Sequence record: NC_054902.1
Origin: Enterobacteria phage Aplg8
Length of the DNA: 64,000 bases
Direction: 5' to 3' (one strand)
A program made the position numbers and the translations under genes. Under the pieces are notes generated by a model. The model worked only from the letters and a program-made list of their open reading frames with translations, searched no databases and was not told the origin of the DNA. Numbering within the stretch: the stretch's first letter is position 1; each line of letters begins with the position of its first letter. Positions 3,618 to 56,784 of this stretch are shown piece by piece.

Positions 3618-6600
3618 ATGGCTACTTTAAAACAAATACAATTTAAAAGAAGCAAAACTGCAGGTCAACGTCCTGCTGCTTCAGTATTAGCCGAAGGTGA
3701 ATTGGCTATAAACTTAAAAGACCGTACTCTTTTTACTAAAGATGACTCGGGAAATATTATTGATTTAAGCATTACCGCTGGCGGTAATATTAGTGGAAAT
3801 ATCACTCAAACTGGCGATTATACACAGACTGGAAAATTTAATTTAATTGGTCCGCAAATTGTAGCAAGCGGTGGATATATTGAGTTTAATTATCGTACTA
3901 CTGGAAGTGGGGCTTGGTCTGGTCAACACACTGCAAAAGCTCCAATTTTTGTAGATTTAAGCTCAGCTACTTCCACATCTGAATATAACCCTATAATTAA
4001 ACAGCGCTTTAAAGATGGAACTTTTTCATTAGGTACTTTAGTTTCTGAAGGTTCGTTGAAGATTCATTATATCAATGAATCTGGCGATTCGAAATATTGG
4101 ACGTTTCGACGTGACGGCGGATTTGTTGTTGACGGTGGAGGTTTAGCAGTATCAGGAGGTAGTATAACTACATCTGGAAATATTGCAGCTCTCGGAAATA
4201 TTACTTCGCCTCAGATTAATACTAAAAATATTATTTTAGATACAAAAGCATTTGGACAATACGATTCGCAATCATTAGTTCAATATGTTTATCCTGGAAC
4301 AGGTGAAGAAAATGGTATAAACTATCTTCGTAAAGTTCGAGCTAAATCAGGCGGAACCATTTACCATGAAATCGCTTCAGCTCAAACCGGTAAAAATGAT
4401 GAAATTTCTTGGTGGACCGGAAATACACTTACTACTAAATTAATGGGTCTTCGTAATGATGGCGCAATGGTATTACGTCGTTCACTTGCTATTGGCACAA
4501 TTACCACTGACGAAAATACTAACAACTATGGTTCTCCTACTCCAATGGGAGAAAGATATATTGCTTTGGGCGATGCTGCCACTGGTTTAAAATACATTAA
4601 GCAGGGTGTTTATGATTTAGTAGGTAATTGGAATTCTGTTGCTTCTATTACTCCTGATAGTTTCCGTAGTACTCGTAAAGCGTTATTTGGACGTTCAGAA
4701 GACCAAGGCAGAACCTGGACAATGCCTGGAACGAACGCTGCCTTTTTATCAGTTCAAACACAGGCTGATGAAAACACTGCTGGAGACGGCCAGACGCATA
4801 TTGGCTATAACTCAGGCGGAAAAATGAACCACTATTTCCGTGGTAAAGGCAAAACTAATATTAATACTCAGAAAGGTATGGAAGTTAATCCGGGTATTTT
4901 GAAATTGGTAACTGGCTCTAATAACGTACAGTTTTATGCCGACGGAACAGTATCTTCAATACAAAGAATTAAATTTGATAACGGATTAGTTCTTACTGGT
5001 GCTAGACCCGACGGTATTCAACTTGACGCTCCTACAGCAACAGATGGCACTAAAACTATATTGTGGGCCGGCGGTACTCGCCCAGGTCAGAATAAAAGTT
5101 ATCTATCTATCAAAGCATGGGGTAATGCCTTTAATGCATCTGGCGATCGTGCTCGTGAAACAGTTTTTGAAGTATCAGATGGACAAGGTTACCATTTTTA
5201 TTCTCAACGAGTTGCTCCCGGATCAGGTTCTACCGTCGGACCTATTCAATTTCGAGTTAATGGTGGTTTATTAACTTCTGGTGGTATTACATCATCTGGT
5301 TCTATTGTTACTGAATCAAGTTTAGTTGCAAATAATGGATTATCTGTAAATGGTCAGGCTAAATTCGGCGGAACTGCTGATGCATTAAGAATTTGGAATG
5401 CTGAATATGGCGCAATTTTCCGTCGTTCAGAAGCATCATTGCATATTATTCCAACCCCTAAAGATGCTGGTGAAAGTGGTGGAATAAGTAATCTTCGCCC
5501 GTTAAGTATCAGCCTTAATAACGGTATGGTACAAATGCGTCATTCTGTCACGTTAGGCGATGATGGCGCTGGCGGTAATATGATTACTGTGGACAATGAT
5601 AACAAACTTGTTGTTGTTACTAGTCATAGTCGTATTTCTCCTAATTACCGTATGCAGGTAGGACAAGCAGCTTATATTGATGCTGAATGTACTGACACCG
5701 TTCGCCCGGCTGGTGCAGGGTCTTTTGCTTCACAAAATAATGAAAACGTTCGTGCTCCGTTCTATATGAATATTAATCGCACAGATACAAGTACTTACGT
5801 TCCTATTTTAAAGCAACGTTATGTTCAAGGAAATAGCTGTTATTCTTTAGGTACTTTAATAAATGGCGGTAACTTCAGAGTTCATTATCATGAAGGTGGA
5901 GACGGAAGTTCAACAGGCGCAACTATAAAAGATTTAGGCTGGGAATTTACACGTTCTGGTGATTTTATATCTCCTAAGCGCATTTCTGCCGGGGGTTCAG
6001 TTTATTTAGGTACAGACGGTAACATCACAGGTGGTTCTGGTAATTTTGCCAACTTAAATAGTACAATTGAATCACTTAAAACTGATATTGTCTCAAGTTA
6101 TCCAATTGGTGCTCCGATTCCATGGCCTACTGATACACCTCCTGAAGGTTATGCCATCATGGAAGGTCAAACATTTGATGTTGACTTGTATCCTAAGTTA
6201 GCTGCTGTGTATCCTTCCGGCGCTCTGCCTGATATGCGTGGGCAAACGATTAAAGGTAAACCATCTGGGCGCGCTGTATTAAGTACAGAAGCAGACGGTG
6301 TTAAGTCACATAGCCATAGTGCAAGTGCATCAAGCACAGATTTGGGTACTAAGACCACTTCTAGTTTTGATTACGGTAGCAAAACGACTTCAAGCTTTGA
6401 TTATGGTACTAAGACCAGTAATACCACTGGTAACCATAACCATACAGTGAGTGGTAATACTAGTTCCGCAGGAGCTCACCAACACGCGCGTTCAGGTCCA
6501 CAGGTCACTGCTGCATGGGCAGACGATTTGTTTAGAGACGGGGTTACTACGATAGGTGCAAACTCATATGCTAAAATTAACTCAGGTATCACTGGTTCGA

Positions 6601-6854: not shown

Positions 6855-6858
6855 GGAG

Positions 6859-6880
6859 AAGGGGCTTCGGTCCCTTTTTA
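6859..6880 (+). terminator. GC-rich hairpin with UUCG loop after gene 37
   Basis: aggggc-ttcg-gtccct followed by ttttta. Confidence 0.45.
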
Positions 6881-6884
6881 TAAT

Positions 6885-7436
6885 ATGAAACTCTATCACT
6901 ATTATTTTGACACTAAAGAATTTTACAAAGAAGAAAATTATAAACCATTAAAAGGCGTAGGATTTCCGGCTCATTCGACACCAAAAAAACCTTTAGACCC
7001 TAAAGAAGGCTATGCTGTTATATTTGACGAACGCGAGCAAGAATGGGTATATGTTGAAGACCATCGAGGAAAAACAGTATGGACATATGATAAGCAAAAA
7101 ATTGTTATTGACACTCCAGGTGCTCTTCAAAATGTTACTACAGAAGAACCTGGTGAATTTGACCTTTGGACCGACGACGGGTGGAAGGAAGATGAAGCAT
7201 ATAAACGCGTAGTTCAACGTGATAAGAAAATTCATGAACTCTATAAATTATTCAGTGTTTTAAGTTCTCTTATTGACGCAGAGGTTGCTAATAGAGAAGA
7301 AAAACGAAAATTTAAAGAGCTCAAAAAATTCTTTGCCCTTTTAGAAAAACATGAACATCTTGGCGGCGAATTCCCTAAATTCCCTGACCTTGAAAACAAA
7401 TCTATTATCAAAGCGATTATAAATATCTTTAAGTAA
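6885..7436 (+). CDS. 38: Tail fibre assembly chaperone gp38 (T4-type, not the T2-type adhesin)
   Basis: 183 aa, same as T4 gp38; lies between 37 and t. Confidence 0.75.
   Translation: MKLYHYYFDTKEFYKEENYKPLKGVGFPAHSTPKKPLDPKEGYAVIFDEREQEWVYVEDHRGKTVWTYDKQKIVIDTPGALQNVTTEEPGEFDLWTDDGWKEDEAYKRVVQRDKKIHELYKLFSVLSSLIDAEVANREEKRKFKELKKFFALLEKHEHLGGEFPKFPDLENKSIIKAIINIFK
7418..7425 (+). promoter_or_regulatory. T4-type late promoter (TATAAATA) upstream of holin t
   Basis: Exact TATAAATA about 20 nt upstream of the ATG at 7446, with an AAGGAGG ribosome-binding site between. Confidence 0.6.
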
Positions 7437-11003: not shown

Positions 11004-11153
11004 TTACTGCATGACTGTGATAACTGTCATGATAACACGTTGAATTCCGAACGCAAGAAGACCTCCTGCTACGGCTGGAACAACACCTAAACCCGCCAGT
11101 AAAATGCTACCGGATACTAATGCAGCGCTTGTAATACCTATGAATGGACTCAT
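11004..11153 (-). CDS. Small hydrophobic protein, 49 aa
   Basis: ATG overlaps the gene 52 TGA (ATGA); product MSPFIGITSAALVSGSILLAGLGVVPAVAGGLLAFGIQ... is entirely hydrophobic. Not in the ORF track (under 60 aa). Confidence 0.35.
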   Translation of the reverse strand: MSPFIGITSAALVSGSILLAGLGVVPAVAGGLLAFGIQRVIMTVITVMQ

Positions 11154-12478
11154 TTGATTTCCTCTAAATCTTTAGTGTATTCGGTAACTACATCAGTAGT
11201 TTTCCAATATTCGTTTTCTTCTTTCTTAGCTTTAGCTTCTTCAGCAAGTTTCTTTGCTTCGTCGGAAGTCATATGAAAAATATTCATTCCGACTAGTTTA
11301 TCAACATAAGAAGAATACATCTCAATTTTAGAAAGTTCTTCGGTCAGTTCTTTACGAGTTTTACCTTGAACAACAATTTCACCTGAAATTACTTTCTTAA
11401 TGAAATGTGCCTTGGCAAAGGCTAAACGAAAAGCTGACTCAGTTTCTTTGATTTTGTTATCAATTCGTTTTTGGACATAAGTTTTACGAACTTCAACAAA
11501 GTCTTTAATTAAATCAACTACGTTATCGTAAACTTGCAGTTTTCCTTTCTCATTAATGACGGTAATATTCTGAGAACGACGCTCAATCAACCCGAAGTCT
11601 TTCATAATTTTTGCATGGCGTTCTTCTTCATTATCGCTCAAAGAATATTCTTTACGGAATTTAACTTTGAATCCAAAACCATGCTCACCACAAGCATCAT
11701 CCCATGTAATGAAGCCTTTATCTTCAAGTGGGTCTAAGATTTTACTCACATAAGTTTCACGATCATACTTATACGGAATCTCAGTGATATGCATTTGAGT
11801 TCGTGAAGTAAACTTATATGTTCCACGAATTTCATATTGCCCATCAATTTCAACGACTTCACCACGAAATTCTGGGAATTCTACCTTCGGTTTAGTTACT
11901 TTCTTTCCTTGAAGAGCTTGCAGTACAGCTTTCTTAACAGAAGAAACACTATGAGGAAGAATGTAAGTTGCATAACCAGTTGCAATACCGGAAACGCCAT
12001 TAAGAAGAACAGTAGGAATAATAGGCAAATAGAAAGCAGGCGGAATGTGTTCTTTATCTTGATGTACCGGAGCATATTCAGTATCTTTATATACGTTATA
12101 GAAATTTTTACTTACACGAGCAAAAATATAACGACTTGCTGCTGCTTTTTGGACGGTACGAGAACCGAAGTTTCCTTGACCATCTAACAAAGGAAAGTTA
12201 TTATTCCAAGTGTTAGCCATCAAAGCCCCCGCATCTTGTGCAGAGTTTTCACCATGGTGATATCCAAGGTCCGCTACACCACCTGCAATAGAAGCGAGTT
12301 TGTGAAACTTATCTTTATTTCCTCGTGCCAAATCAAGAGCTCGAGCAATAACAAATCGTTGAACTGGCTTAAATCCATCAATCATATTTGGAATAGCACG
12401 ATTTTCAACCGTGTACATAGCATAAGCCAATGCTTCATTATCAATGATACTTTTTAAATCGCGATTATTCAGTTGCAT
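11150..12478 (-). CDS. 52: DNA topoisomerase II medium subunit gp52 (GyrA-like)
   Basis: 442 aa, same as T4 gp52; GyrA-like N-terminus. Confidence 0.9.
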   Translation of the reverse strand: MQLNNRDLKSIIDNEALAYAMYTVENRAIPNMIDGFKPVQRFVIARALDLARGNKDKFHKLASIAGGVADLGYHHGENSAQDAGALMANTWNNNFPLLDGQGNFGSRTVQKAAASRYIFARVSKNFYNVYKDTEYAPVHQDKEHIPPAFYLPIIPTVLLNGVSGIATGYATYILPHSVSSVKKAVLQALQGKKVTKPKVEFPEFRGEVVEIDGQYEIRGTYKFTSRTQMHITEIPYKYDRETYVSKILDPLEDKGFITWDDACGEHGFGFKVKFRKEYSLSDNEEERHAKIMKDFGLIERRSQNITVINEKGKLQVYDNVVDLIKDFVEVRKTYVQKRIDNKIKETESAFRLAFAKAHFIKKVISGEIVVQGKTRKELTEELSKIEMYSSYVDKLVGMNIFHMTSDEAKKLAEEAKAKKEENEYWKTTDVVTEYTKDLEEIK

Positions 12479-12482
12479 AAAT

Positions 12483-12623
12483 TTACCATACTAGTGAATG
12501 TAGTGCCATAATAACATCAGAAATGAAAAGCACGACTTGAATTAATCCAAACATTACTCCATAATATAGTGCTATTAATAAAATAGCAAGGGCTAATGAA
12601 TAGCCCAAGATTTTCTTAATCAT
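12483..12623 (-). CDS. Small membrane protein, 46 aa
   Basis: Hydrophobic ORF immediately upstream of gene 52; not in the ORF track. Confidence 0.3.
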   Translation of the reverse strand: MIKKILGYSLALAILLIALYYGVMFGLIQVVLFISDVIMALHSLVW

Positions 12624-12774
12624 TAGTAGATAACAACACAAATGTTAAATATGCACACATACCCTGAGCTAAAGCTTGCGAAAACACACTGCTGGCATCA
12701 ATACAGATAGTTAAAACACATGCTACTATCCAACAAATAAATGAAATAACTCCTAATAATTTTGCAATATTCAT
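12616..12774 (-). CDS. ac-like small membrane protein, paralogue 1
   Basis: About 52 aa from internal Met (MNIAKLLGVISFICW...SVFSQALAQG...); T4 has ac next to stp. Confidence 0.4.
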   Translation of the reverse strand: MNIAKLLGVISFICWIVACVLTICIDASSVFSQALAQGMCAYLTFVLLSTND

Positions 12775-12784
12775 AATATTCTCC

Positions 12785-12940
12785 TCAACTATTTTTAGAA
12801 CCAATGTACGCGAATAATGATAAAATCGCTAATACGCCCTGAGCTGATGCTTGCAAAAATACTGAAGTTTCTCCAGTTATTACTGTTCCGATGCATAAAA
12901 AGAACCAACAGAAAAAGGCTATACCGTGAACAAATTTCAT
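12785..12940 (-). CDS. ac-like small membrane protein, paralogue 2
   Basis: 51 aa (MKFVHGIAFFCWFFLCIG...SVFLQASAQG...), clear paralogue of the 12616-12774 ORF; not in the ORF track. Confidence 0.4.
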   Translation of the reverse strand: MKFVHGIAFFCWFFLCIGTVITGETSVFLQASAQGVLAILSLFAYIGSKNS

Positions 12941-12947
12941 ATTTTCC

Positions 12948-13028
12948 TCACTGGCGTCCGAAGACGCCTTTGGTTTTAAGATTGTTACGATAGAACTGCA
13001 TCACGTGTTCGTTGTGGAAATTACTCAT
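12948..13028 (-). CDS. stp: Stp peptide (activator of the host PrrC anticodon nuclease, anti-restriction of EcoprrI)
   Basis: 26-aa [29 protein letters not shown] matches T4 Stp as I recall it; lies between ndd and ac-like as in T4. Not in the ORF track. Confidence 0.7.
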
Positions 13029-13486
13029 TAATATGCCTGCAAAACGAATTTAAAGTTATCAGCCAACATACGGTTCATTTCTTCAAGTGTTTGATACTCA
13101 GAATGATGATTACGAGTAAACGCCAAAGCTAACTGACCTTTACCAAATCCTGTCGTCAGAGGTTTCATCTTAGAAGCAGGCAGATAAAATACTGTGTATG
13201 GAACATTGTTATTTGCAATAGTACGTGCAAGCTGAGACCGACGTTGACGAATATGACTTAGAACTGCACTGAATCCTTGCTTAGAACGCTGATTACCTAC
13301 ATAAAATCGTGCAGACACGCATGGATTACTAAATGGACGACCATCTAATTTACTTACTAAAAAGTAAAATCCAGGTTTAGATAAAATATCTTTATGCGGA
13401 GTTCCCAAAAACCATTCACCACCCTTGATTGTACCAATAACAGTAGCACCTGCGTTGTTCAGATCAGTAACAGTCATATATTTCAT
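13028..13486 (-). CDS. ndd: Ndd nucleoid-disruption protein
   Basis: About 152 aa from [13 protein letters not shown]...; Shine-Dalgarno GAGGAAA precedes this Met; T4 position and size. Confidence 0.7.
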
Positions 13487-15339: not shown

Positions 15340-15402
15340 TTAAACTTTCCTTTATGTCGGAATCACTGATATTCATATAAATCATAATTTCTCTTAAAAC
15401 AA

Positions 15403-15420
15403 AAGGGCCGAAGCCCCTTA
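15403..15420 (-). terminator. GC-rich tetraloop hairpin and U-run
   Basis: gggccgaagcccc followed on the - strand by a U-run. Confidence 0.45.
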
Positions 15421-15617: not shown

Positions 15618-15632
15618 AATTTTCCTTAGTTA

Positions 15633-15648
15633 AGGGCCGAAGCCCTTA
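15633..15648 (-). terminator. GC-rich tetraloop hairpin at the 3' end of rIIB
   Basis: agggccgaagccct overlapping the rIIB stop. Confidence 0.4.
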
Positions 15649-19004: not shown

Positions 19005-19045
19005 CCCAATTAATTATACCACATCCTTGTGGTAAAGTAAACTAC
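19005..19045 (-). promoter_or_regulatory. T4 early promoter
   Basis: - strand GTTTAC (19037-19042) and -10-like GGTATAATTA. Confidence 0.45.
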
Positions 19046-20859
19046 TGGCTCATCCATTCTTTGCGAAGGTCAGCATTATCTCCCATGAGCATTTCAAAAA
19101 GCTCTTTCCAGTTCTCAGGAAGTTTAACAACATCATATACTGGATTTTGAATCATCTCACGATATTCAGATTTTTCCAAAGAGCCAAGTCCTTTAATATA
19201 ACGGATGCTATGTTTAGGTAGAGCATCTTTGGCACTCTCATATTCAGCGACTGTATAAAACCATTCTTGTTTTTTACCGACCTGAGCGATGATTACAGGA
19301 GTTTTGACAAAGCGAATTCGTCCTTGCTCAAACAATTCTGGCCAATTACTAAAAAACCCGAGCAGAGAAGGATAAATGCTTCCTAGACCATCATGGTCAG
19401 CATCAGTCATAATAGCAATATTGCGATAATTCAAGTTTTCAGCTTTTTCACCAAGAACTAGACCAGTGATTGCGCAAATATCAAATAGTTCTTTGTTTTT
19501 AAGCATATCGGCATATGACATACCCCAGCTATTAAGAACTTTACCGCGCAATGGATAACCACCATGAAGTTCTTTATCGCGAACATCAATAAGATATCCG
19601 ATAGCTGAATCACCCTCAGTCAAGAACAATGTAGTGTCAGCATCTTTACCGCAAAGATTCGCTTTGATATGTTTGTGAACCTTAGCTTTAGAAGCCTTTT
19701 TAGCTGCTTTAGTTTCTGCTGCTTTTTCTGCCGCCAATTTACGAGCCAAAGCAGCTTCAATAATCGGCATTAAAATTGCTTCATTATTTAGAATAGCGCG
19801 TGAAATCTTTTTAGCATCAAGTTGAATATGACTACGGATTTCACCAAATGGAGAAGTCAAACGCTCTTTAGTTTGAGAATCAAATCGCATGTTTTTCATA
19901 TCACGAACAAACATAACGATAGTCAAACATTCTTTGACACGCGCTTTGGTTACATCAATTTTGAACTTACGTTTGATTTGTGGAATAAGGTCTTCACAAA
20001 TATCATCCATAACACAGTCAATGTGATGGCCACCATTCTTAGTATGAATGTTATTGACGTATGTTAATTGACGAAAACCATCCGGTGAACGACCAACCGC
20101 AATAGAACAATTTTCTTGTTCTTGAACGATAGCATGTTCATCATATTGGCGTGCGTATTTCTTAAAATTACCCTGAACCTTTTTACCATTAAAGGTAAAT
20201 TGAATATCAGGATAAACAACAGCAAGTGTTTGGAGACGATCTAGTGTAATGTCAAGATAAACTTGGGACAGCTCATTAGTTTCAAATGACATAAAATCAG
20301 GAATGAAAGTAACACGAGTTCCTTTCCATTTTCCAGGAATATCTTCCCATGATTTATTTTCCATGCCATTTGAGCAACGAACTACAATATTATTTTGACC
20401 ATCGCCAGTTTCACCGACAAACATCACAGAAAAAATGTTTGTCAAACTAGAACCAACACCGTTCATACCGCCAGTGACGCGTTCTTTATCATCACCGAAG
20501 TTACCACCTGCTTTTGGAATAGTCCATGCGGCAACAGGACCAGGAATTTCTTCACCGGTAGGTGTTTTAACCATCGCTTGTGGAATACCGCGACCGTTAT
20601 CTTCAACTGTTACTTGATTGTTTTTAATAGTAACATTAATTTTATTTGCGAATTTAAACTTAGTACGAATACCTTCATCTACTGAGTTATCGATAATTTC
20701 ATCAATAAGCTTAACAAGACCAGGTACATACTGAACACTTTCCCATTTACCAAACAGAAAGCGCTCATGCATTTCATTAGCAGAAGAGCCAATGTACATG
20801 CCACTACGCTTTTTGATATGTTCAATATCGCTCAGAATTTTAATTTCATTCTTAATCAT
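19042..20859 (-). CDS. 39: DNA topoisomerase II large subunit gp39 (GyrB-like), uninterrupted
   Basis: 605-606 aa single ORF; MIKNEIKILSDIEHIKKRSGMYIGSS... ATPase N-terminus and Toprim-like C-terminal region in one reading frame. Confidence 0.9.
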   Translation of the reverse strand: MIKNEIKILSDIEHIKKRSGMYIGSSANEMHERFLFGKWESVQYVPGLVKLIDEIIDNSVDEGIRTKFKFANKINVTIKNNQVTVEDNGRGIPQAMVKTPTGEEIPGPVAAWTIPKAGGNFGDDKERVTGGMNGVGSSLTNIFSVMFVGETGDGQNNIVVRCSNGMENKSWEDIPGKWKGTRVTFIPDFMSFETNELSQVYLDITLDRLQTLAVVYPDIQFTFNGKKVQGNFKKYARQYDEHAIVQEQENCSIAVGRSPDGFRQLTYVNNIHTKNGGHHIDCVMDDICEDLIPQIKRKFKIDVTKARVKECLTIVMFVRDMKNMRFDSQTKERLTSPFGEIRSHIQLDAKKISRAILNNEAILMPIIEAALARKLAAEKAAETKAAKKASKAKVHKHIKANLCGKDADTTLFLTEGDSAIGYLIDVRDKELHGGYPLRGKVLNSWGMSYADMLKNKELFDICAITGLVLGEKAENLNYRNIAIMTDADHDGLGSIYPSLLGFFSNWPELFEQGRIRFVKTPVIIAQVGKKQEWFYTVAEYESAKDALPKHSIRYIKGLGSLEKSEYREMIQNPVYDVVKLPENWKELFEMLMGDNADLRKEWMSQ

Positions 20860-20911
20860 CACTTATCCTCGTTTGGTTTCGGGAATATTATACTCCGGTA
20901 ATCATAAAGCT

Positions 20912-20929
20912 AAAGGCCCGAAGGCCTTT
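20912..20929 (-). terminator. GC-rich tetraloop hairpin
   Basis: aaaggcccgaaggccttt. Confidence 0.4.
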
Positions 20930-21568: not shown

Positions 21569-21745
21569 TTACCCTTTAAGTAAGTCGTAAAATCCACCAT
21601 TCACATGCTTAGGAGCAGAAGGCCGACGAATAGACAGACGATGACATTTAGGGCAAACATCATTTTCTCGTTCAGAAATCTTTTTAATTTTTTCATATTC
21701 ATGCCCGCAATCTTCGGATTGGCATTTATAATCATACATTGGCAT
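21569..21745 (-). CDS. Zinc-ribbon protein, 58 aa (FmdB-like CxxC...CxxC)
   Basis: MPMYDYKCQSEDCGHEYEKIKKISERENDVCPKCHRLS...; fills the gap between flanking ORFs. Not in the ORF track. Confidence 0.4.
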   Translation of the reverse strand: MPMYDYKCQSEDCGHEYEKIKKISERENDVCPKCHRLSIRRPSAPKHVNGGFYDLLKG

Positions 21746-32146: not shown

Positions 32147-32168
32147 AAGGACTCCCGAAGGAGTCCTT
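32147..32168 (-). terminator. Rho-independent terminator downstream of soc
   Basis: 9-bp stem aaggactcc/ggagtcctt with cgaa loop, followed on the - strand by a U-run. Confidence 0.6.
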
Positions 32169-44886: not shown

Positions 44887-44904
44887 AAGGGGCCGAAGCC
44901 CCTT
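44887..44904 (-). terminator. GC-rich tetraloop hairpin after regA
   Basis: aaggggccgaagcccctt. Confidence 0.4.
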
Positions 44905-46801: not shown

Positions 46802-46835
46802 AATTTCCTCATTCAAGTTTTAGTGTAAATTATAA

Positions 46836-46849
46836 AGGGCCGAAGCCCT
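46836..46849 (-). terminator. GC-rich tetraloop hairpin between 45 and 44
   Basis: agggccgaagccct; may act as an RNA-stability or attenuating element rather than a full terminator. Confidence 0.35.
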
Positions 46850-46852
46850 CTA

Positions 46853-47539
46853 TTAAAAATCGTGGGTAGAATCAGCTTCAAGAGCTACTACATAATTCGC
46901 GTGTTCACCTTCAAATTTAGCAGCACCTTGTTTACCTTTTGCCCAGAGCAGAAGTTTATAATTTCCTGGTTGCATTTTCATATTTGCCATATTGATAATG
47001 AAATTAAATGTATTTTCACCATCATAATCACCAAGAGTCAAAGAATATTTAACACGGGTAAGAGCAGAATCTTCTACTTTATTAAAACCGTTAATTACGA
47101 TTTTACCTTCTTTTACCGTGATAGCAATTGTATCAATCTGCAGACCACGAGATACACGCAACAGCTGTTGAAGGTCTTCAGCTTTAATTTCAGTAACAAC
47201 AGATGCTACCGGGAATGGAATTGGTTTATTAGGAGCAACTACTGTACTCGGATCGGCTGCTGGCCAAAAAATTGTTGAACGGGCATCAGCAATTTTAATA
47301 TTACCATCTTCTGACTGGGAAATTTCTGCATCGTCATTAACTAGAGACAGAATACCGAGAAAACCGTTCAAATCGTAAATCGCTACATCAAAATCAATAG
47401 TGTCAGAAATATTTGCTTCCGCATAAGTTGTACCATTAACTGCGCGAGTCATAATAAATTGACCGGATTTAAGCATAATACCAGAGTTAATAGTAGCGAA
47501 ATTTTTAAGCAGAGCAGTAGTATCTTTAGACAGTTTCAT
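46853..47539 (-). CDS. 45: Sliding clamp gp45
   Basis: 228 aa, same as T4 gp45. Confidence 0.9.
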   Translation of the reverse strand: MKLSKDTTALLKNFATINSGIMLKSGQFIMTRAVNGTTYAEANISDTIDFDVAIYDLNGFLGILSLVNDDAEISQSEDGNIKIADARSTIFWPAADPSTVVAPNKPIPFPVASVVTEIKAEDLQQLLRVSRGLQIDTIAITVKEGKIVINGFNKVEDSALTRVKYSLTLGDYDGENTFNFIINMANMKMQPGNYKLLLWAKGKQGAAKFEGEHANYVVALEADSTHDF

Positions 47540-48195: not shown

Positions 48196-48203
48196 TATAA
48201 ATA
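48196..48203 (+). promoter_or_regulatory. T4-type late promoter (TATAAATA) upstream of the + strand HNH ORF
   Basis: Exact TATAAATA about 34 nt upstream of the ATG at 48237. Confidence 0.5.
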
Positions 48204-48236: not shown

Positions 48237-48953
48237 ATGAATTATAAACTAATTTATGAAAAGTTAATCTCTAATGCTAAATCTCGAAAACTTGATTGCT
48301 ATACTGAATCTCATCACATTATACCACGCTGTTTAAATGGCAGCGATGATGCCTCAAACTTAGTAGATTTAACACCAGAAGAGCACTATGTAGCTCATCA
48401 ACTTTTAGTAAAAATTTATCCTTCTGAACCAAAATTAGTCTATGCTGCTAACATGATGACAGTTTCCACGAAATACGCTAAACGTAACAATAAAACTTTC
48501 GGTTGGATTCGTCGTAAACTCTGGGAAATAGAAAAGAATAAAGAATTCTCCCAGGAGACACGAAAGAAAATGTCTGATGCAGTAGCTAATAAAGCAAGAC
48601 TAACTTGTCCACATTGCGGTAAGTCCGGATTAAGCGGGAATATGAATCGATGGCATTTTGATAACTGCCCGAATCACCCTAATCCTAAAGTTAGACCACC
48701 GATGTCTAAAGAACACAGAAATAATATCTCAAACGGGCTTAAAGCAATCATTCTTGAAGAAACATCCTGCGAATTCTGCGGAATGATAGGCAAGAAATGC
48801 GTTATCGCAGCGCATAGAAATTTCTGCAAGAAAAATCCAAATGGACGCAAGAAAACTGAAAAGACTGGTACTTGCGTCCATTGTGGTAAAGTTACCACTT
48901 TCGGAAATTTATCAAGATGGCATAATGATAACTGTAAATATAAACCTAGCTAA
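48237..48953 (+). CDS. HNH-family (homing) endonuclease-like protein with three C-terminal zinc-finger-like repeats
   Basis: 238 aa; HNH core ESHHIIPRCLNGSDDASNLVDLTPEEHYVAH; three repeats of C-x2-C-G...RWH.DNC...NP (from CPHCGK, CEFCGM, CVHCGK); opposite strand to its neighbours; its stop overlaps the gene 46 stop. Confidence 0.6.
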   Translation: MNYKLIYEKLISNAKSRKLDCYTESHHIIPRCLNGSDDASNLVDLTPEEHYVAHQLLVKIYPSEPKLVYAANMMTVSTKYAKRNNKTFGWIRRKLWEIEKNKEFSQETRKKMSDAVANKARLTCPHCGKSGLSGNMNRWHFDNCPNHPNPKVRPPMSKEHRNNISNGLKAIILEETSCEFCGMIGKKCVIAAHRNFCKKNPNGRKKTEKTGTCVHCGKVTTFGNLSRWHNDNCKYKPS

Positions 48954-50634
48954 TCTTAGCTAAACTAAATCTACCAACTTTTTCCATTTGAATATGCTGA
49001 CCATATTCTTGTGGGTCATGGTCTTTATGCGAAATTATGAAGAAGTTGGTATCCTTCAAACCATCTAAAATTTTAGCTACATTTTTAATACCTTCAGCAT
49101 CAAATGCACCGTCATACACTTCATCAAGAAATAAACAACTTATTTTAACACCTGAAACTTTTTCAGCAATATCACGCCAAGTAAATAAAAGAGCAATATC
49201 AATTCGTGCTTTTTCACCTTGACTGAATGAAGCATAACTAAAATCTTCACGACCACGGGATTTAATTGTCTCATTAAATTCTTCATCTAATGTAAACACA
49301 TAATCCGCTTCCATTATTTTAAGATAATGGTTAATCTGCTTATTAAATAATGGAATGTACTTTTTAATAATAGCACCTTTAATACCAGAATCTTTGAGCA
49401 TATCAGTCAAAATTCCTCGGTGGTATTTTTCCATTACTAAATTAGTTTTTGTCTTAACAATTTTATCAAGTTCTTCTTGAAGCAGTGCTATTTCATCAGC
49501 ATGGTCAATAAACTCAGAAGATGCTTTTTCTATAGCTGCTTTAACTTTTTTAGCTTTATCTACCGTCGTGATTAGAGATTGCTTTTTATTGCGAATATCA
49601 TTTGCCAACGACTGCTGAGTTTTAATATTATCTCGGTATTCATCAACAAGAACTTTTAAATTATCACGGTGTGTTGAAAGCTGTTCAAACGAATGCGTAC
49701 ATTCAGAAACTTTATCTTTAATTTTAGAAACAACTTTATCACCGGAACTTAATTGTGACAAGCAGGTTGGACATAATCCACCTTCGTGATACATATTAAT
49801 GACTTTATTATACGAGTCAATTTTTGATTTAATTAAAACTGCTTCTTGACCGATTTTATTAAATGCATCAGTCGGGTCTTCATCCAAAACAATATTAACT
49901 AATCTTTCATTAGCTTCTTCTATTTCCGATTTTAGCGTTCTAGCTTCTTTTGCCAAATCATCATACATATTTTGTAGACGAGTAAGGTTGTCACCCGTTA
50001 ATTTTTTCTGGCGTTCAACGTTATCATTATATATTTTAATTTGTTGGATAATACTATCTTTTTTAACATCAAGCACTTGGTTTTGTGAATTTAATTCACG
50101 TATTAGTGCTTTATTAAGCTTATCCATTTCAGCTAATGTTCCTACCTCAAGCAGGTCTTCCACAAGCTTTCTTCGCGCAGGGGTCGACAAACCCATGAAA
50201 GGGGTATACCCTGCTGTACCAAGGACAACAATCTGCTTGAAACTGGCATATGACATTCCGATAAGCTGTTCAAATTCTGCTTGGAAATCTTTACTGCTGG
50301 CAGATTCATTAAGACGTGTACCGTTAACGGTGATTTCGAAAACGTTTGGTTTTTGTCCTCTTTTGATATAGTACTTTTTCTCATCATATTCCATCCACAA
50401 TTCAACTAAAAGTTCTTTCTTATTTGTGCTGTTTATTAATTGACCTTTCTTTACATCACGAAATGGCTTGCCAAAAAGCCCAAATGTGATGGCTTCTAAC
50501 ATAGTAGACTTACCACCGCCATTTCGTCCAGTAATAAGAGTTTTTTGAACCTTATCTAATTGAATGTCAACTCCATTTTGACCAACTGACATTATATTTT
50601 TATATTTTACTCTATTAAGTTTAAATGATTTCAT
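48946..50634 (-). CDS. 46: Recombination endonuclease subunit gp46 (Rad50/SbcC-like)
   Basis: 562 aa; Walker A GRNGGGKST, zinc hook CPTC, signature and D-loop at the C-terminus. Confidence 0.9.
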   Translation of the reverse strand: MKSFKLNRVKYKNIMSVGQNGVDIQLDKVQKTLITGRNGGGKSTMLEAITFGLFGKPFRDVKKGQLINSTNKKELLVELWMEYDEKKYYIKRGQKPNVFEITVNGTRLNESASSKDFQAEFEQLIGMSYASFKQIVVLGTAGYTPFMGLSTPARRKLVEDLLEVGTLAEMDKLNKALIRELNSQNQVLDVKKDSIIQQIKIYNDNVERQKKLTGDNLTRLQNMYDDLAKEARTLKSEIEEANERLVNIVLDEDPTDAFNKIGQEAVLIKSKIDSYNKVINMYHEGGLCPTCLSQLSSGDKVVSKIKDKVSECTHSFEQLSTHRDNLKVLVDEYRDNIKTQQSLANDIRNKKQSLITTVDKAKKVKAAIEKASSEFIDHADEIALLQEELDKIVKTKTNLVMEKYHRGILTDMLKDSGIKGAIIKKYIPLFNKQINHYLKIMEADYVFTLDEEFNETIKSRGREDFSYASFSQGEKARIDIALLFTWRDIAEKVSGVKISCLFLDEVYDGAFDAEGIKNVAKILDGLKDTNFFIISHKDHDPQEYGQHIQMEKVGRFSLAKIS

Positions 50635-50649
50635 TTTGTATCCAATTGT

Positions 50650-51504
50650 TCACAATGAAGAAAATTCTTTAACTAAAGCCTGTAATGAAGCCTCTATTGG
50701 ATATCCATTCTTAACTAACATTTTCCTAAACATTACATGTTTAGGACGATTATATGATATCCACAATTCATACAATTTATCTTTATTATCCCAATGATAG
50801 CCTTTTCGTCGAGATGCTATATGAGCTTTTCTAATCTCCGGATTTTTCCAACTAGCAGCTACTGAATTTGATATAGCTATTTTATATTCAGGTTTTGATA
50901 AAGCAGCACGAACAGCCTTTTGGTGTTTAATTTTATTTTCTTCGTTATTAAACCATTCCCTTGAAGCCATTGAAATTTTTTGTTTTGTTTTAAAATTATT
51001 TAATCTTTCTTTATTATCTTTCCTATTTTTTGCTACTGAAAAATATTTTAATGCCCTTTCTCTAGCAGCATTTCTATTTTGCGGATTTGAATAATACTGT
51101 TGAAGCCTTTTTGATATTGTGTCACTTACATCTTGTTTTATAAAACTATATTCAGCAGCTATTAAATCAACTTCGGCTAAAGATAAATTTTTATATGTTT
51201 TTCCTGACATCATTCTATTTAAAGCATTTAGCATTTTTCCATTTTTACCTTTTGCTAATAAGAAGTGTGCTTTAAAATGATTAAAATGACTTAAATTAAC
51301 TAAATTCCATGTAGATTTTAAATATTCAGGAAATATTGATTTAGGAAGCACGTGGTGTGCTTCCGTTTTACCTGGAGTTTTAACAGTTGAATTCACAGAA
51401 ATAAAATTAATGTAAGACTTGGCGTCTTCTTCACTCAACGCTAATTTTTCAACTAATTCCTTTATTAAAAATTCATCATTAATGTCAAGTTTAAAATTCT
51501 TCAC
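50650..51504 (-). CDS. HNH-family (homing) endonuclease-like protein, apparent GTG start
   Basis: 284 aa; HNH core EAHHVLPKSIFPEY...NLVNLSHFNHFKAH; basic repeat-rich C-terminal half; AT-rich; first 12 codons duplicate the 5' end of the upstream small ORF. Confidence 0.55.
   Translation of the reverse strand: MKNFKLDINDEFLIKELVEKLALSEEDAKSYINFISVNSTVKTPGKTEAHHVLPKSIFPEYLKSTWNLVNLSHFNHFKAHFLLAKGKNGKMLNALNRMMSGKTYKNLSLAEVDLIAAEYSFIKQDVSDTISKRLQQYYSNPQNRNAARERALKYFSVAKNRKDNKERLNNFKTKQKISMASREWFNNEENKIKHQKAVRAALSKPEYKIAISNSVAASWKNPEIRKAHIASRRKGYHWDNKDKLYELWISYNRPKHVMFRKMLVKNGYPIEASLQALVKEFSSL
51470..51488 (-). repeat. Direct repeat copy A (aattcatcattaatgtcaa) at the 5' end of the HNH ORF
   Basis: 19/19 identical to 51673-51691, with about 10 of 15 flanking matches; encodes (L/F)DINDEF. 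Confidence 0.8.
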
Positions 51505-53104: not shown

Positions 53105-53127
53105 TATATCAAACTCCGTATAAAGCT

Positions 53128-53145
53128 AAAGGGCCGAAGCCCTTT
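53128..53145 (-). terminator. GC-rich tetraloop hairpin at the 3' end of agt
   Basis: aaagggccgaagcccttt followed by a T/U-run. Confidence 0.5.
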
Positions 53146-54346
53146 ATTTTGTAATAATGTCAAACTGTTCTTTAAAGCAGAAGCTTGAATCTTGATGCTG
53201 ATACAAAAATTCATAAGCTTTTTCGCGTTCACGGTCATAAAGAGTTCGGTCAGATGACAGTTCTTTAATACGTTCAAACGTTGATTCCATGTCATTTTCA
53301 TCAAACCAAATGATACCGCTATCATGCGAGGTCAAAGGAGTATTATCAACACGGAATTTTAAATTTTCGCCAGTAGATTTCCAAAATACCGGAATTGTTC
53401 CACATGCACCAAGCTCGAGATGAGTATATTCTAAAGAACGTTGTAGATATTTTTTATCCAACTTACTCAACTGATAACCAAATCCGGATTTACTCATGCG
53501 TTCAAGCATTTCGCTATTTACATAACGGTCAAGAATTTGCGTTGGCAAATTAGGAGCAATTTTAATTTGGTCTACTTGATGAAGACGATAATACTCGTAT
53601 GGAATTCCTTTTTCTTTAATAGGAATGAACGCTGGAGAACGTTCCAGACCTTCCATAATAGTACTTAGTCCTGCAGGTTTAAGATGTTTTTCATGAAAAT
53701 CAAACATCTGATAAAAACCTTTCCATGTAGTCGTACGACCAATCCAACGGTTGATATTCATGTTAATTTCAGAAACATCTTTCCAGTAGGTTGACCGAAC
53801 CTTCGCAATATCCATAGGAGGCTGAAAGTTATATACTGTCGGTGCTTCTTCAATATCATCAAACAGAGAAACTGTTTCAGGATACCATTCTTTCATCAGA
53901 ACTTTATTAAAATCACCATTATCAGAATGGCTAAAAATAACATCAGCTCGACGAACAGTTTCTTCTAATCCCAAATTTCGGCGCAAAGAAAGAGAAGAAT
54001 GGTCATGTTGATAAACTACAACACGAACCGAAGGTTTAATGTTATCAATAATTTTTTTATAGTTATTAATAGTGTCTTCTTCAACCGAAGTAGCAGGAAC
54101 TGAATTGATAATTAGAATATCACAATCATTTACCAGCTTAAGTGTTTTATCATATTCTTTTGCCAATAAAACCGGAATTGAAAATGATTTATAATCATGC
54201 GCGCAATTACGAGTAAATGATTTATCTTTAGCATAAACCAAAGTTACTTCATGACCATTCTTAATAAACCAATCACGTTGCTCAAGAGAAAATTTAGTTA
54301 CACCACAACCTTCAAGACCTCGAGCCATAAAAATACATACTTTCAT
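53144..54346 (-). CDS. agt: DNA alpha-glucosyltransferase (hmC alpha-glucosylation)
   Basis: 400 aa, same as T4 AGT; MKVCIFMARGLEGCGVTKF... near-identical to T4 AGT as recalled. Confidence 0.9.
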   Translation of the reverse strand: MKVCIFMARGLEGCGVTKFSLEQRDWFIKNGHEVTLVYAKDKSFTRNCAHDYKSFSIPVLLAKEYDKTLKLVNDCDILIINSVPATSVEEDTINNYKKIIDNIKPSVRVVVYQHDHSSLSLRRNLGLEETVRRADVIFSHSDNGDFNKVLMKEWYPETVSLFDDIEEAPTVYNFQPPMDIAKVRSTYWKDVSEINMNINRWIGRTTTWKGFYQMFDFHEKHLKPAGLSTIMEGLERSPAFIPIKEKGIPYEYYRLHQVDQIKIAPNLPTQILDRYVNSEMLERMSKSGFGYQLSKLDKKYLQRSLEYTHLELGACGTIPVFWKSTGENLKFRVDNTPLTSHDSGIIWFDENDMESTFERIKELSSDRTLYDREREKAYEFLYQHQDSSFCFKEQFDIITK

Positions 54347-54398
54347 TTAATATCCTCTTTGTTTTGGTTTATTTTACCAAAAATTTATAAAGCAATAT

Positions 54399-54414
54399 AG
54401 GAGCCGAAGCTCCT
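54399..54414 (-). terminator. GC-rich tetraloop hairpin
   Basis: aggagccgaagctcct. Confidence 0.35.
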
Positions 54415-54589
54415 ATCCACATAATACGCCATACAGAGGCTCGTTAGAACTTTTAAATTTTATGCGCTTATATTTTATAGTTCCTTCTGCTTTAGCTTTA
54501 TCATGAGACGCTTTAAAGAGTCTCATCATTTCCTCTTTAGAGGAACGAATTTTATTATAATCTATTTCAGAAGTCTGGGTGTTCATCTT

Positions 54590-56729: not shown

Positions 56730-56768
56730 ACATTATCCTCAATTGCATTAAAATTTTATTATCCAAAA

Positions 56769-56784
56769 AGGGCCGAAGCCCTTA
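56769..56784 (-). terminator. GC-rich tetraloop hairpin
   Basis: aagggccgaagccctt. Confidence 0.4.

Follow-up and report, generated by a model that had tools for sequence, protein, structure and literature searches.

Stp, the EcoprrI/PrrC system and the repair loop formed by polynucleotide kinase and RNA ligase have been textbook phage–host counter-defence since the 1980s and 1990s. In prr+ E. coli, Stp is both necessary and sufficient to turn on a latent tRNA-Lys anticodon nuclease, PrrC, which is kept inactive through its association with the Hsd proteins (PMC3014915, PMC1484252, PMC12409349). Besides Stp, activation of PrrC requires GTP hydrolysis and DNA whose EcoprrI sites are unmodified, while dTTP acts as co-activator, and the activated nuclease cuts tRNA-Lys 5′ of the wobble base, a break that T4 Pnk and RNA ligase 1 mend (PMC3014915, PMC1484252, PMC12409349). 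Suppressor (loss-of-function) mutations in stp cluster at residues 4-14, and removal of the eight C-terminal codons lowers both activities of the peptide only moderately (PMC3014915). The same logic, in which a restriction inhibitor triggers a linked suicide effector, is followed by PARIS in sensing T7 Ocr and by Ronin (PMC12409349; bioRxiv 10.1101/2023.04.06.535777). However, the proteins and effectors of those systems are unrelated, and Stp is a 26-residue peptide specific for type Ic enzymes rather than a DNA mimic.

Here we examine a 64,000-nucleotide stretch of the Enterobacteria phage Aplg8 genome (NC_054902.1; the window), in which an earlier note had recognised T4 Stp in a very short open reading frame. 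In the following, we compare this locus with T4 and with more distant phages, at the level of the peptide, of the hairpin in its 3′ codons and of the genes that surround it.

The stp reading frame and its neighbourhood

The stp coding sequence occupies 12948..13028 on the minus strand, a strand that the earlier note had left out, and consists of 26 ATG-initiated codons followed by TGA. An open reading frame of this size carries little weight by itself. Within the same 3-kb stretch, 41 overlapping frames of at least 20 amino acids were counted, which places a bare 26-aa frame at chance level, and the case for stp was therefore built on homology, together with the pattern of substitutions discussed below. 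The encoded peptide is identical at all 26 residues (100%) to T4 Stp (T4p267 of NC_000866, NP_049878) and to the stp products of RB3 and RB27, and the identity includes residues 4-14, where the loss-of-function mutations of T4 Stp cluster. At the DNA level, the window and T4 genes differ by two synonymous changes, at codons 5 and 19. The Pfam family PF08133 ('Anticodon nuclease activator family') aligns residues 1-26 to the whole of its 26-position profile with 75.3 bits (E=2e-21) against a cutoff of 25 bits, and PHROG 6763 matches the peptide with 75.4 bits. A tblastn search of 50,697 phage records with the peptide gave matches in 816 records, with an identity of at least 99% in 421, and the matches include T4, RB3 and RB27, in which the feature is described as 'stp: activator of host PrrC lysyl-tRNA endonuclease'. 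The same query found no matching chain in the PDB, that is, no solved structure containing Stp.

The recognition of T4 Stp is thus borne out by a tblastn identity of 100% to T4 stp, by PF08133, by PHROG 6763 and by synteny with T4, and no observation spoke against it. We put the probability at about 95% that this frame is the orthologue of T4 stp in a T4-like (Tequatrovirus) genome, an estimate that also covers the translational coupling and the hairpin role proposed below. Both the gene and its mechanism are already known, and a copy identical to the T4 prototype is not a discovery.

The genomic setting is that of the T-even phages. In the T4 reference (NC_000866), stp (165505..165585, 81 nt) adjoins ndd (165585..166040), and ac, 52.1 and 52 follow; the order ndd-stp-ac-52.1-52 is present in the window as well. 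The window copy of ndd, encoding the nucleoid disruption protein (152 aa, ATG at 13486), lies at 13028..13486 on the minus strand and is matched over residues 1-152 by Pfam PF06591 (317.8 bits) and by PHROG 1102. Its TAA stop (13030..13028) and the stp ATG (13028..13026) form the sequence TAATG at 13026..13030 of the minus strand, with base 13028 in common, as the earlier note had read it. This one-nucleotide overlap recurs in the T4 reference (at 165585), RB3 and RB68. Because the sole Shine-Dalgarno-like element ahead of stp is a weak AGG, 9 nt upstream, we infer that stp would be translated through coupling to ndd by way of the overlap.

Downstream of stp, and likewise on the minus strand, the window contains an additional ac-like small membrane gene (51 aa, MKFVHG..., 12785..12940; phrog_2501, 91 bits) and then the ac (acridine resistance) orthologue (52 aa, MNIAKLL..., 12616..12774; phrog_2501, 88.6 bits), whose N-terminus is that of ac in T4 and RB3. 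These are followed by the 52.1 orthologue (46 aa, 12483..12623; Pfam DUF7396, 80 bits, and phrog_3595), in the position of T4 52.1, and by gene 52 for the topoisomerase II medium subunit (442 aa, 11150..12478), an open reading frame that is a topoisomerase in the matching records and serves as the synteny anchor. The window therefore has two paralogous ac-like genes, both phrog_2501, where the T4 reference has one. The 51-aa gene is also found in Shigella phage ESh33, and it is the sole ac-type gene of RB68. Over 1.2 kb, the closest relatives are ESh33 (99.3%) and Escherichia phage 132 (99.2%), both Tequatrovirus. Taken together, the T4 and window loci share the 26-residue sequence, the one-base overlap with ndd, the neighbouring genes and the hairpin, and differ by the additional ac-like gene directly after stp and the two synonymous changes.

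The earlier note had called the gene unannotated. This holds for the ORF track of the window and for many automatically annotated relatives, but not for the records of T4, RB3, RB27 and RB68, in which stp is named. In both closest relatives, ESh33 and phage 132, the stp slot is empty. Among the 28 listed rows with a 100% identical peptide, 2 name stp, whereas at least 21 have ndd alone at this place. The gene appears unannotated because automatic pipelines with length thresholds skip such short genes, and the empty slot is an annotation gap, not a discovery. As a consequence, Stp will be undercounted wherever anti-defence genes are surveyed from deposited annotations. The biological gain from the locus is small, and its modest value lies in flagging this systematic gap. 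To this can be added some small refinements of T4 biology from the comparison of homologues: a hairpin that is dispensable for the peptide, a deletion-fusion in the T2 type, and a duplicated, truncated stp in some T4-like contigs.

Predicted action of the peptide and selection on its core

Published work on the identical peptide provides a rationale for how Stp may act in this phage. Stp would be made in the delayed-early period, and its N-proximal residues, about 18 in number, would act on a type Ic restriction-modification complex of the host (EcoprrI, and also EcoR124I), blocking restriction and leaving modification unaffected. In a host that carries prrC inside the restriction-modification locus, Stp would thereby unmask latent PrrC, in a reaction that involves GTP hydrolysis, dTTP and unmodified target DNA. 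PrrC would then cleave tRNA-Lys 5′ of the wobble base, and the phage polynucleotide kinase/phosphatase and RNA ligase 1 would repair the tRNA. The path from EcoprrI inhibition to PrrC release, which the earlier note had also put forward, agrees with the literature on the identical T4 peptide and would by analogy apply here (PMC3014915, PMC1484252). The window begins inside gene 34, and in the T4 gene order pnk and rnlA would lie upstream of its first base. Phage 132, which together with ESh33 is closest to the window, has annotated genes for Pnk and RNA ligase 1 (133181..134089 and 135820..136944).

To follow the peptide beyond these near-identical copies, we used a homologue set of 16 annotated phage loci and 19 IMG/VR loci, the latter obtained with a degenerate DNA pattern scan. 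Residues 1-18/19 are nearly invariant among T4-like myoviruses (Tequatrovirus, Dhakavirus, Gaprivervirus) and siphophages, the latter comprising Drexlerviridae (Rtp, P818, U136B), Kagunavirus (K1ind2, ZCEC5) and Caminolopintovirus, so that the conservation of the N-terminus spans Straboviridae, Drexlerviridae and Guernseyvirinae, whereas the C-terminal tail is variable. Compared with Kagunavirus K1ind2, codons 1-19 show 11 synonymous changes and 1 nonsynonymous change (pN 0.02), with synonymous sites saturated, and the comparison with VR7 gives a pS of 0.82 and a pN of 0.13. Such a synonymous bias is the mark of a translated peptide and not of a conserved RNA or spacer, and by this measure the stp peptide is under strong purifying selection. 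The combination of a conserved N-terminus and a varying tail is in keeping with the published genetics of stp (PMC3014915).

The same data bear on whether the frame might be retained as nucleic acid only, for instance as a spacer between ndd and ac that carries the hairpin, with no functional peptide in this phage. The frame is indeed very short, it has no strong Shine-Dalgarno sequence of its own (the AGG lies 9 nt upstream), and most automatic annotations leave it out. However, the excess of synonymous over nonsynonymous changes in codons 1-19 (11 to 1) holds across families, and siphophages keep both the frame and its start in unrelated genomic contexts. Moreover, loss-of-function missense mutations map inside the frame, and the peptide is active when synthesised chemically or expressed from a plasmid (PMC3014915). 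We consider a purely nucleic-acid role extremely improbable, and a translated, functional Stp is the reading that we retain.

The siphophage copies (rtp6 of Rtp, U136B_009, gp63 of STGO-35-1 and the unannotated copies in K1ind2 and ZCEC5) resemble the window gene in being very short and in the common core (S/N)(F/H/W)HNEH(V/I)MQ(F/W)YR. They differ from it in having no ndd neighbour, in N- and C-termini that are different or extended, and in the absence of a C(UUCG)G hairpin, also from copies whose tail reads GVFGK. In two Drexlerviridae, Rtp (L007 1-134 and 583-675) and U136B (L014 601-681 and 1251 onward), a gene for polynucleotide kinase/phosphatase lies within about 0.5 kb of stp. This proximity suggests that, outside the T-even phages, the PrrC trigger travels together with one component of the antidote.

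T-even DNA contains glucosyl-hydroxymethylcytosine and is already largely resistant to type I restriction. For this reason, it is not evident what a T-even phage gains from Stp, and anti-restriction may not explain everything about the peptide. Siphophages that have ordinary DNA share an almost unchanged 18-residue core with the T-even phages, and its synonymous sites are saturated. A further target or benefit of Stp in T-even infection, beyond the block of type Ic enzymes, would make this conservation easier to understand. It is a speculative proposal, which we judge rather unlikely; a lesser option under the same heading is that the hairpin and the ribosome-binding junction behind it form a point of cassette exchange.

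The C(UUCG)G hairpin in the 3′ codons of stp

The 3′ end of stp contains a hairpin, GGCGUC-UUCG-GACGCC, at 12968..12953 of the minus strand. Hairpins of this CUUCGG type, reportedly first described in T4 mRNAs by Tuerk et al. in 1988, are said to be unusually ('extraordinarily') stable. That the C(UUCG)G motif originates from T4 mRNA is also summarised in a later paper (PMC4371310). In the window copy, the 6-bp stem and its loop span codons 21-25 and extend one base into codon 26 (GGC GTC TTC GGA CGC C(AG)). The hairpin is thus read as coding sequence, and only 2 nt separate its 3′ end from the TGA. Folded alone, it has a free energy of -10.0 kcal/mol, and the minimum free energy and centroid folds of the surrounding 141 nt both contain it. 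A GC hairpin in the 3′ codons had been proposed before and does exist, but it is one of a genome-wide class and not a feature peculiar to stp.

The extent of this class is evident from a scan of the window. Counting C(UUCG)G loops with at least 4 stem pairs, we found 15 hairpins, compared with 0.7 expected and a maximum of 4 in 200 shuffles. The well-formed ones lie on the plus strand in the late tail-fibre block (for example 2885-2906 and 6856-6879), whereas those of the early block are minus-strand hairpins (for example 15402-15419, 15631-15648, 20912-20929, 32147-32168, 44887-44904, 46832-46853, 53127-53146, 54397-54416 and 56768-56783), and in each block this is the transcribed strand. Most begin within 4 nt of a stop codon, and only some are followed by a U-run. 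The stp hairpin shares with the T4 class the C-G closing pair, the UUCG loop, the G+C-rich stem, the transcribed strand and the location at a gene 3′ end. It differs in that members of the class are mostly non-coding, with the stop codon before or overlapping the 5′ arm, whereas the stp copy is coding and its stop follows 2 nt after the stem. On the strength of class membership, the stp hairpin would act on the sense mRNA as a T4 gene-end stabilising hairpin, positioned directly ahead of the downstream gene's ribosome-binding site. It is not an intrinsic terminator of the sense strand, as the tail after the stem is AGUGAGGAAAAUAUG, which contains no U-run.

The palindrome might instead work on the opposite strand. 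Its 16 nt could constitute a rho-independent terminator of the plus strand that halts antisense or late-strand transcription into the early block, with stp merely accommodating it. Read on that strand, the stem precedes TTTGGTTTTA, and the antisense fold retains a stability of -9.1 kcal/mol; a consensus scan lists the site as terminator-like, with 5 such sites in 2 kb compared with 0.9 expected, and the record of phage G50 places a 'putative transcriptional terminator' on the same bases. However, the T-rich tail is a mere complement of the Lys-Thr-Lys codons AAAACCAAA, and the plus-strand loop would be CGAA rather than UUCG. In addition, 13 of the 15 hairpins of the window carry UUCG on the local gene strand, the exceptions being two weak hairpins at 21708 (plus) and 40385 (minus), which argues for a function in the sense RNA. 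The nearest upstream late-promoter consensus on the plus strand is at 7418, 5.5 kb away. Given the CGAA loop and the distance to this promoter, we rate an antisense terminator low and regard it as decidedly unlikely. The same consensus scan also marks, on either strand, a second terminator-like palindrome, GGGCTA-ATGAA-TAGCCC, at 12590-12606 within the 5′ portion of 52.1. It is visible as well in T2, in TOPO13 and in the 52.1 fragments of the IMG/VR contigs L030 and L034.

Returning to a role as a gene-end hairpin of the sense mRNA, the structure itself would play no part in the activity of the peptide. In Kagunavirus, the GVFGK tail is encoded by structure-free codons (0.0 kcal/mol), and in T2 and TOPO13 the hairpin is deleted; these homologues indicate that the hairpin is dispensable for the peptide. 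Whether the structure itself is selected can be approached through the substitutions within it. Over codons 20-25, pS is 0.30, compared with 0.82-1.06 over codons 1-19 (VR7/L034), although this rests on about 1.5 differences versus 7-9, and the lower synonymous divergence is only suggestive of selection on structure. Three natural variants of the hairpin were seen, namely a UUCG-to-UUUG change in the loop (VR7 type), A to G (TH22) and C to U (L030/L034). All three are third-position transitions, and because a transition gives a G-U pair or a loop change regardless, they cannot separate structural selection from mutation bias. A larger structured RNA around stp was also considered and rejected, as the 141-nt fold is no better than its shuffles (z = -0.46). 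Rfam has no family at the stp region, and its single listed match (TarB, 20 bits against a gathering score of 80) is noise.

The junction after stp and gene turnover around it

Directly behind the hairpin lies a junction, TGAGGAAAATATG, at 12938..12950 of the minus strand, which combines the stp stop codon, a Shine-Dalgarno sequence GAGG (12949..12946) and the ATG of the next gene. The stp TGA overlaps the GAGG, and the ATG follows 7 nt further on. RegB targets GGAG; cleavage by RegB at the junction was considered and rejected, as the Shine-Dalgarno sequence here is GAGG and not GGAG. In a comparison of homologues, the junction is invariant across all hairpin-bearing T4-like copies collected, whereas the downstream gene differs, with at least five sequence types among the phages examined.

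Related phages also show rearrangements of this region. In T2 (L005 601-684) and TOPO13 (L010 601-687), alignment to positions 12600-13060 of the window shows stp codons 1-18 followed by the remnant of the ac-like gene that in the window comes directly after stp. The T2-type peptides accordingly end in …NNLK-NFGILGFKK (T2) or -NFGILGSKNS (TOPO13), and the TOPO13 peptide (...GSKNS) terminates where the ac-like gene itself does, at its stop codon and ribosome-binding junction. The window and the T2 type agree in codons 1-18 and in the ndd overlap, whereas the tail and hairpin are replaced in the latter. These alignments show T2-type Stp to be a natural deletion-fusion that has lost the GVFGRQ tail along with the C(UUCG)G hairpin, and this agrees with the dispensability of the Stp tail.

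A second arrangement is seen in two T4-like contigs of IMG/VR, L030 (6163-6575) and L034 (minus strand, about 4078-4700). In each, a complete stp precedes an ac-like gene and the 5′ portion of 52.1, and this portion is joined at a GAGTAATT microhomology to a second, 5′-truncated copy of stp. The truncated copy, too, is equipped with a hairpin and a TGAGGAAAATATG junction, and another small membrane gene comes next. The arrangement reads as the footprint of a cassette insertion or duplication at the stp locus. Together, the fusion, the duplication and the variable downstream gene suggest recombination-driven turnover in the stp-ac-52.1 region of T4-like phages.

These rearrangements raise the question of whether the hairpin and the TGAGGAAAATATG junction also provide a short patch of homology for swapping cassettes of small membrane-protein genes between T4-like phages. 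Such a role would fit a junction that stays invariant while the gene behind it takes at least five sequence types, the presence of the junction twice in L030 and L034, the second time behind the truncated stp fused to the 52.1 fragment, and the deletion in T2 and TOPO13, which places the end of the ac-like gene directly after stp codon 18. However, a conserved ribosome-binding site beside fast-evolving genes gives the same picture without any role in recombination. Moreover, the L030/L034 breakpoint is at the GAGTAATT microhomology inside stp and 52.1, away from the hairpin, and the sample consists of few genomes. An exchange patch is a tentative possibility that we hold at well below even odds.

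Two loci elsewhere in the window merit a brief description. Gene 39, encoding the topoisomerase II large subunit, is a single 606-aa reading frame at 19042-20862 on the minus strand, with HATPase_c, DNA_gyraseB and TOPRIM_C domains. In T4, the site is split into 39, mobA, 60.1 and gene 60 with its 50-nt translational bypass, whereas gene 39 of the window is unsplit. Gene 46 (48946-50634) is flanked by two reading frames of the homing-endonuclease family phrog_655, at 48237-48953 on the plus strand and 50650-51504 on the minus strand, which encode 238 and 284 aa and have no Pfam hit. The first of these shares 8 nt with the end of gene 46 and has a late-promoter consensus, TATAAATA, at 48196-48203; no other plus-strand frame in the early-gene block past 9 kb reaches 150 aa.
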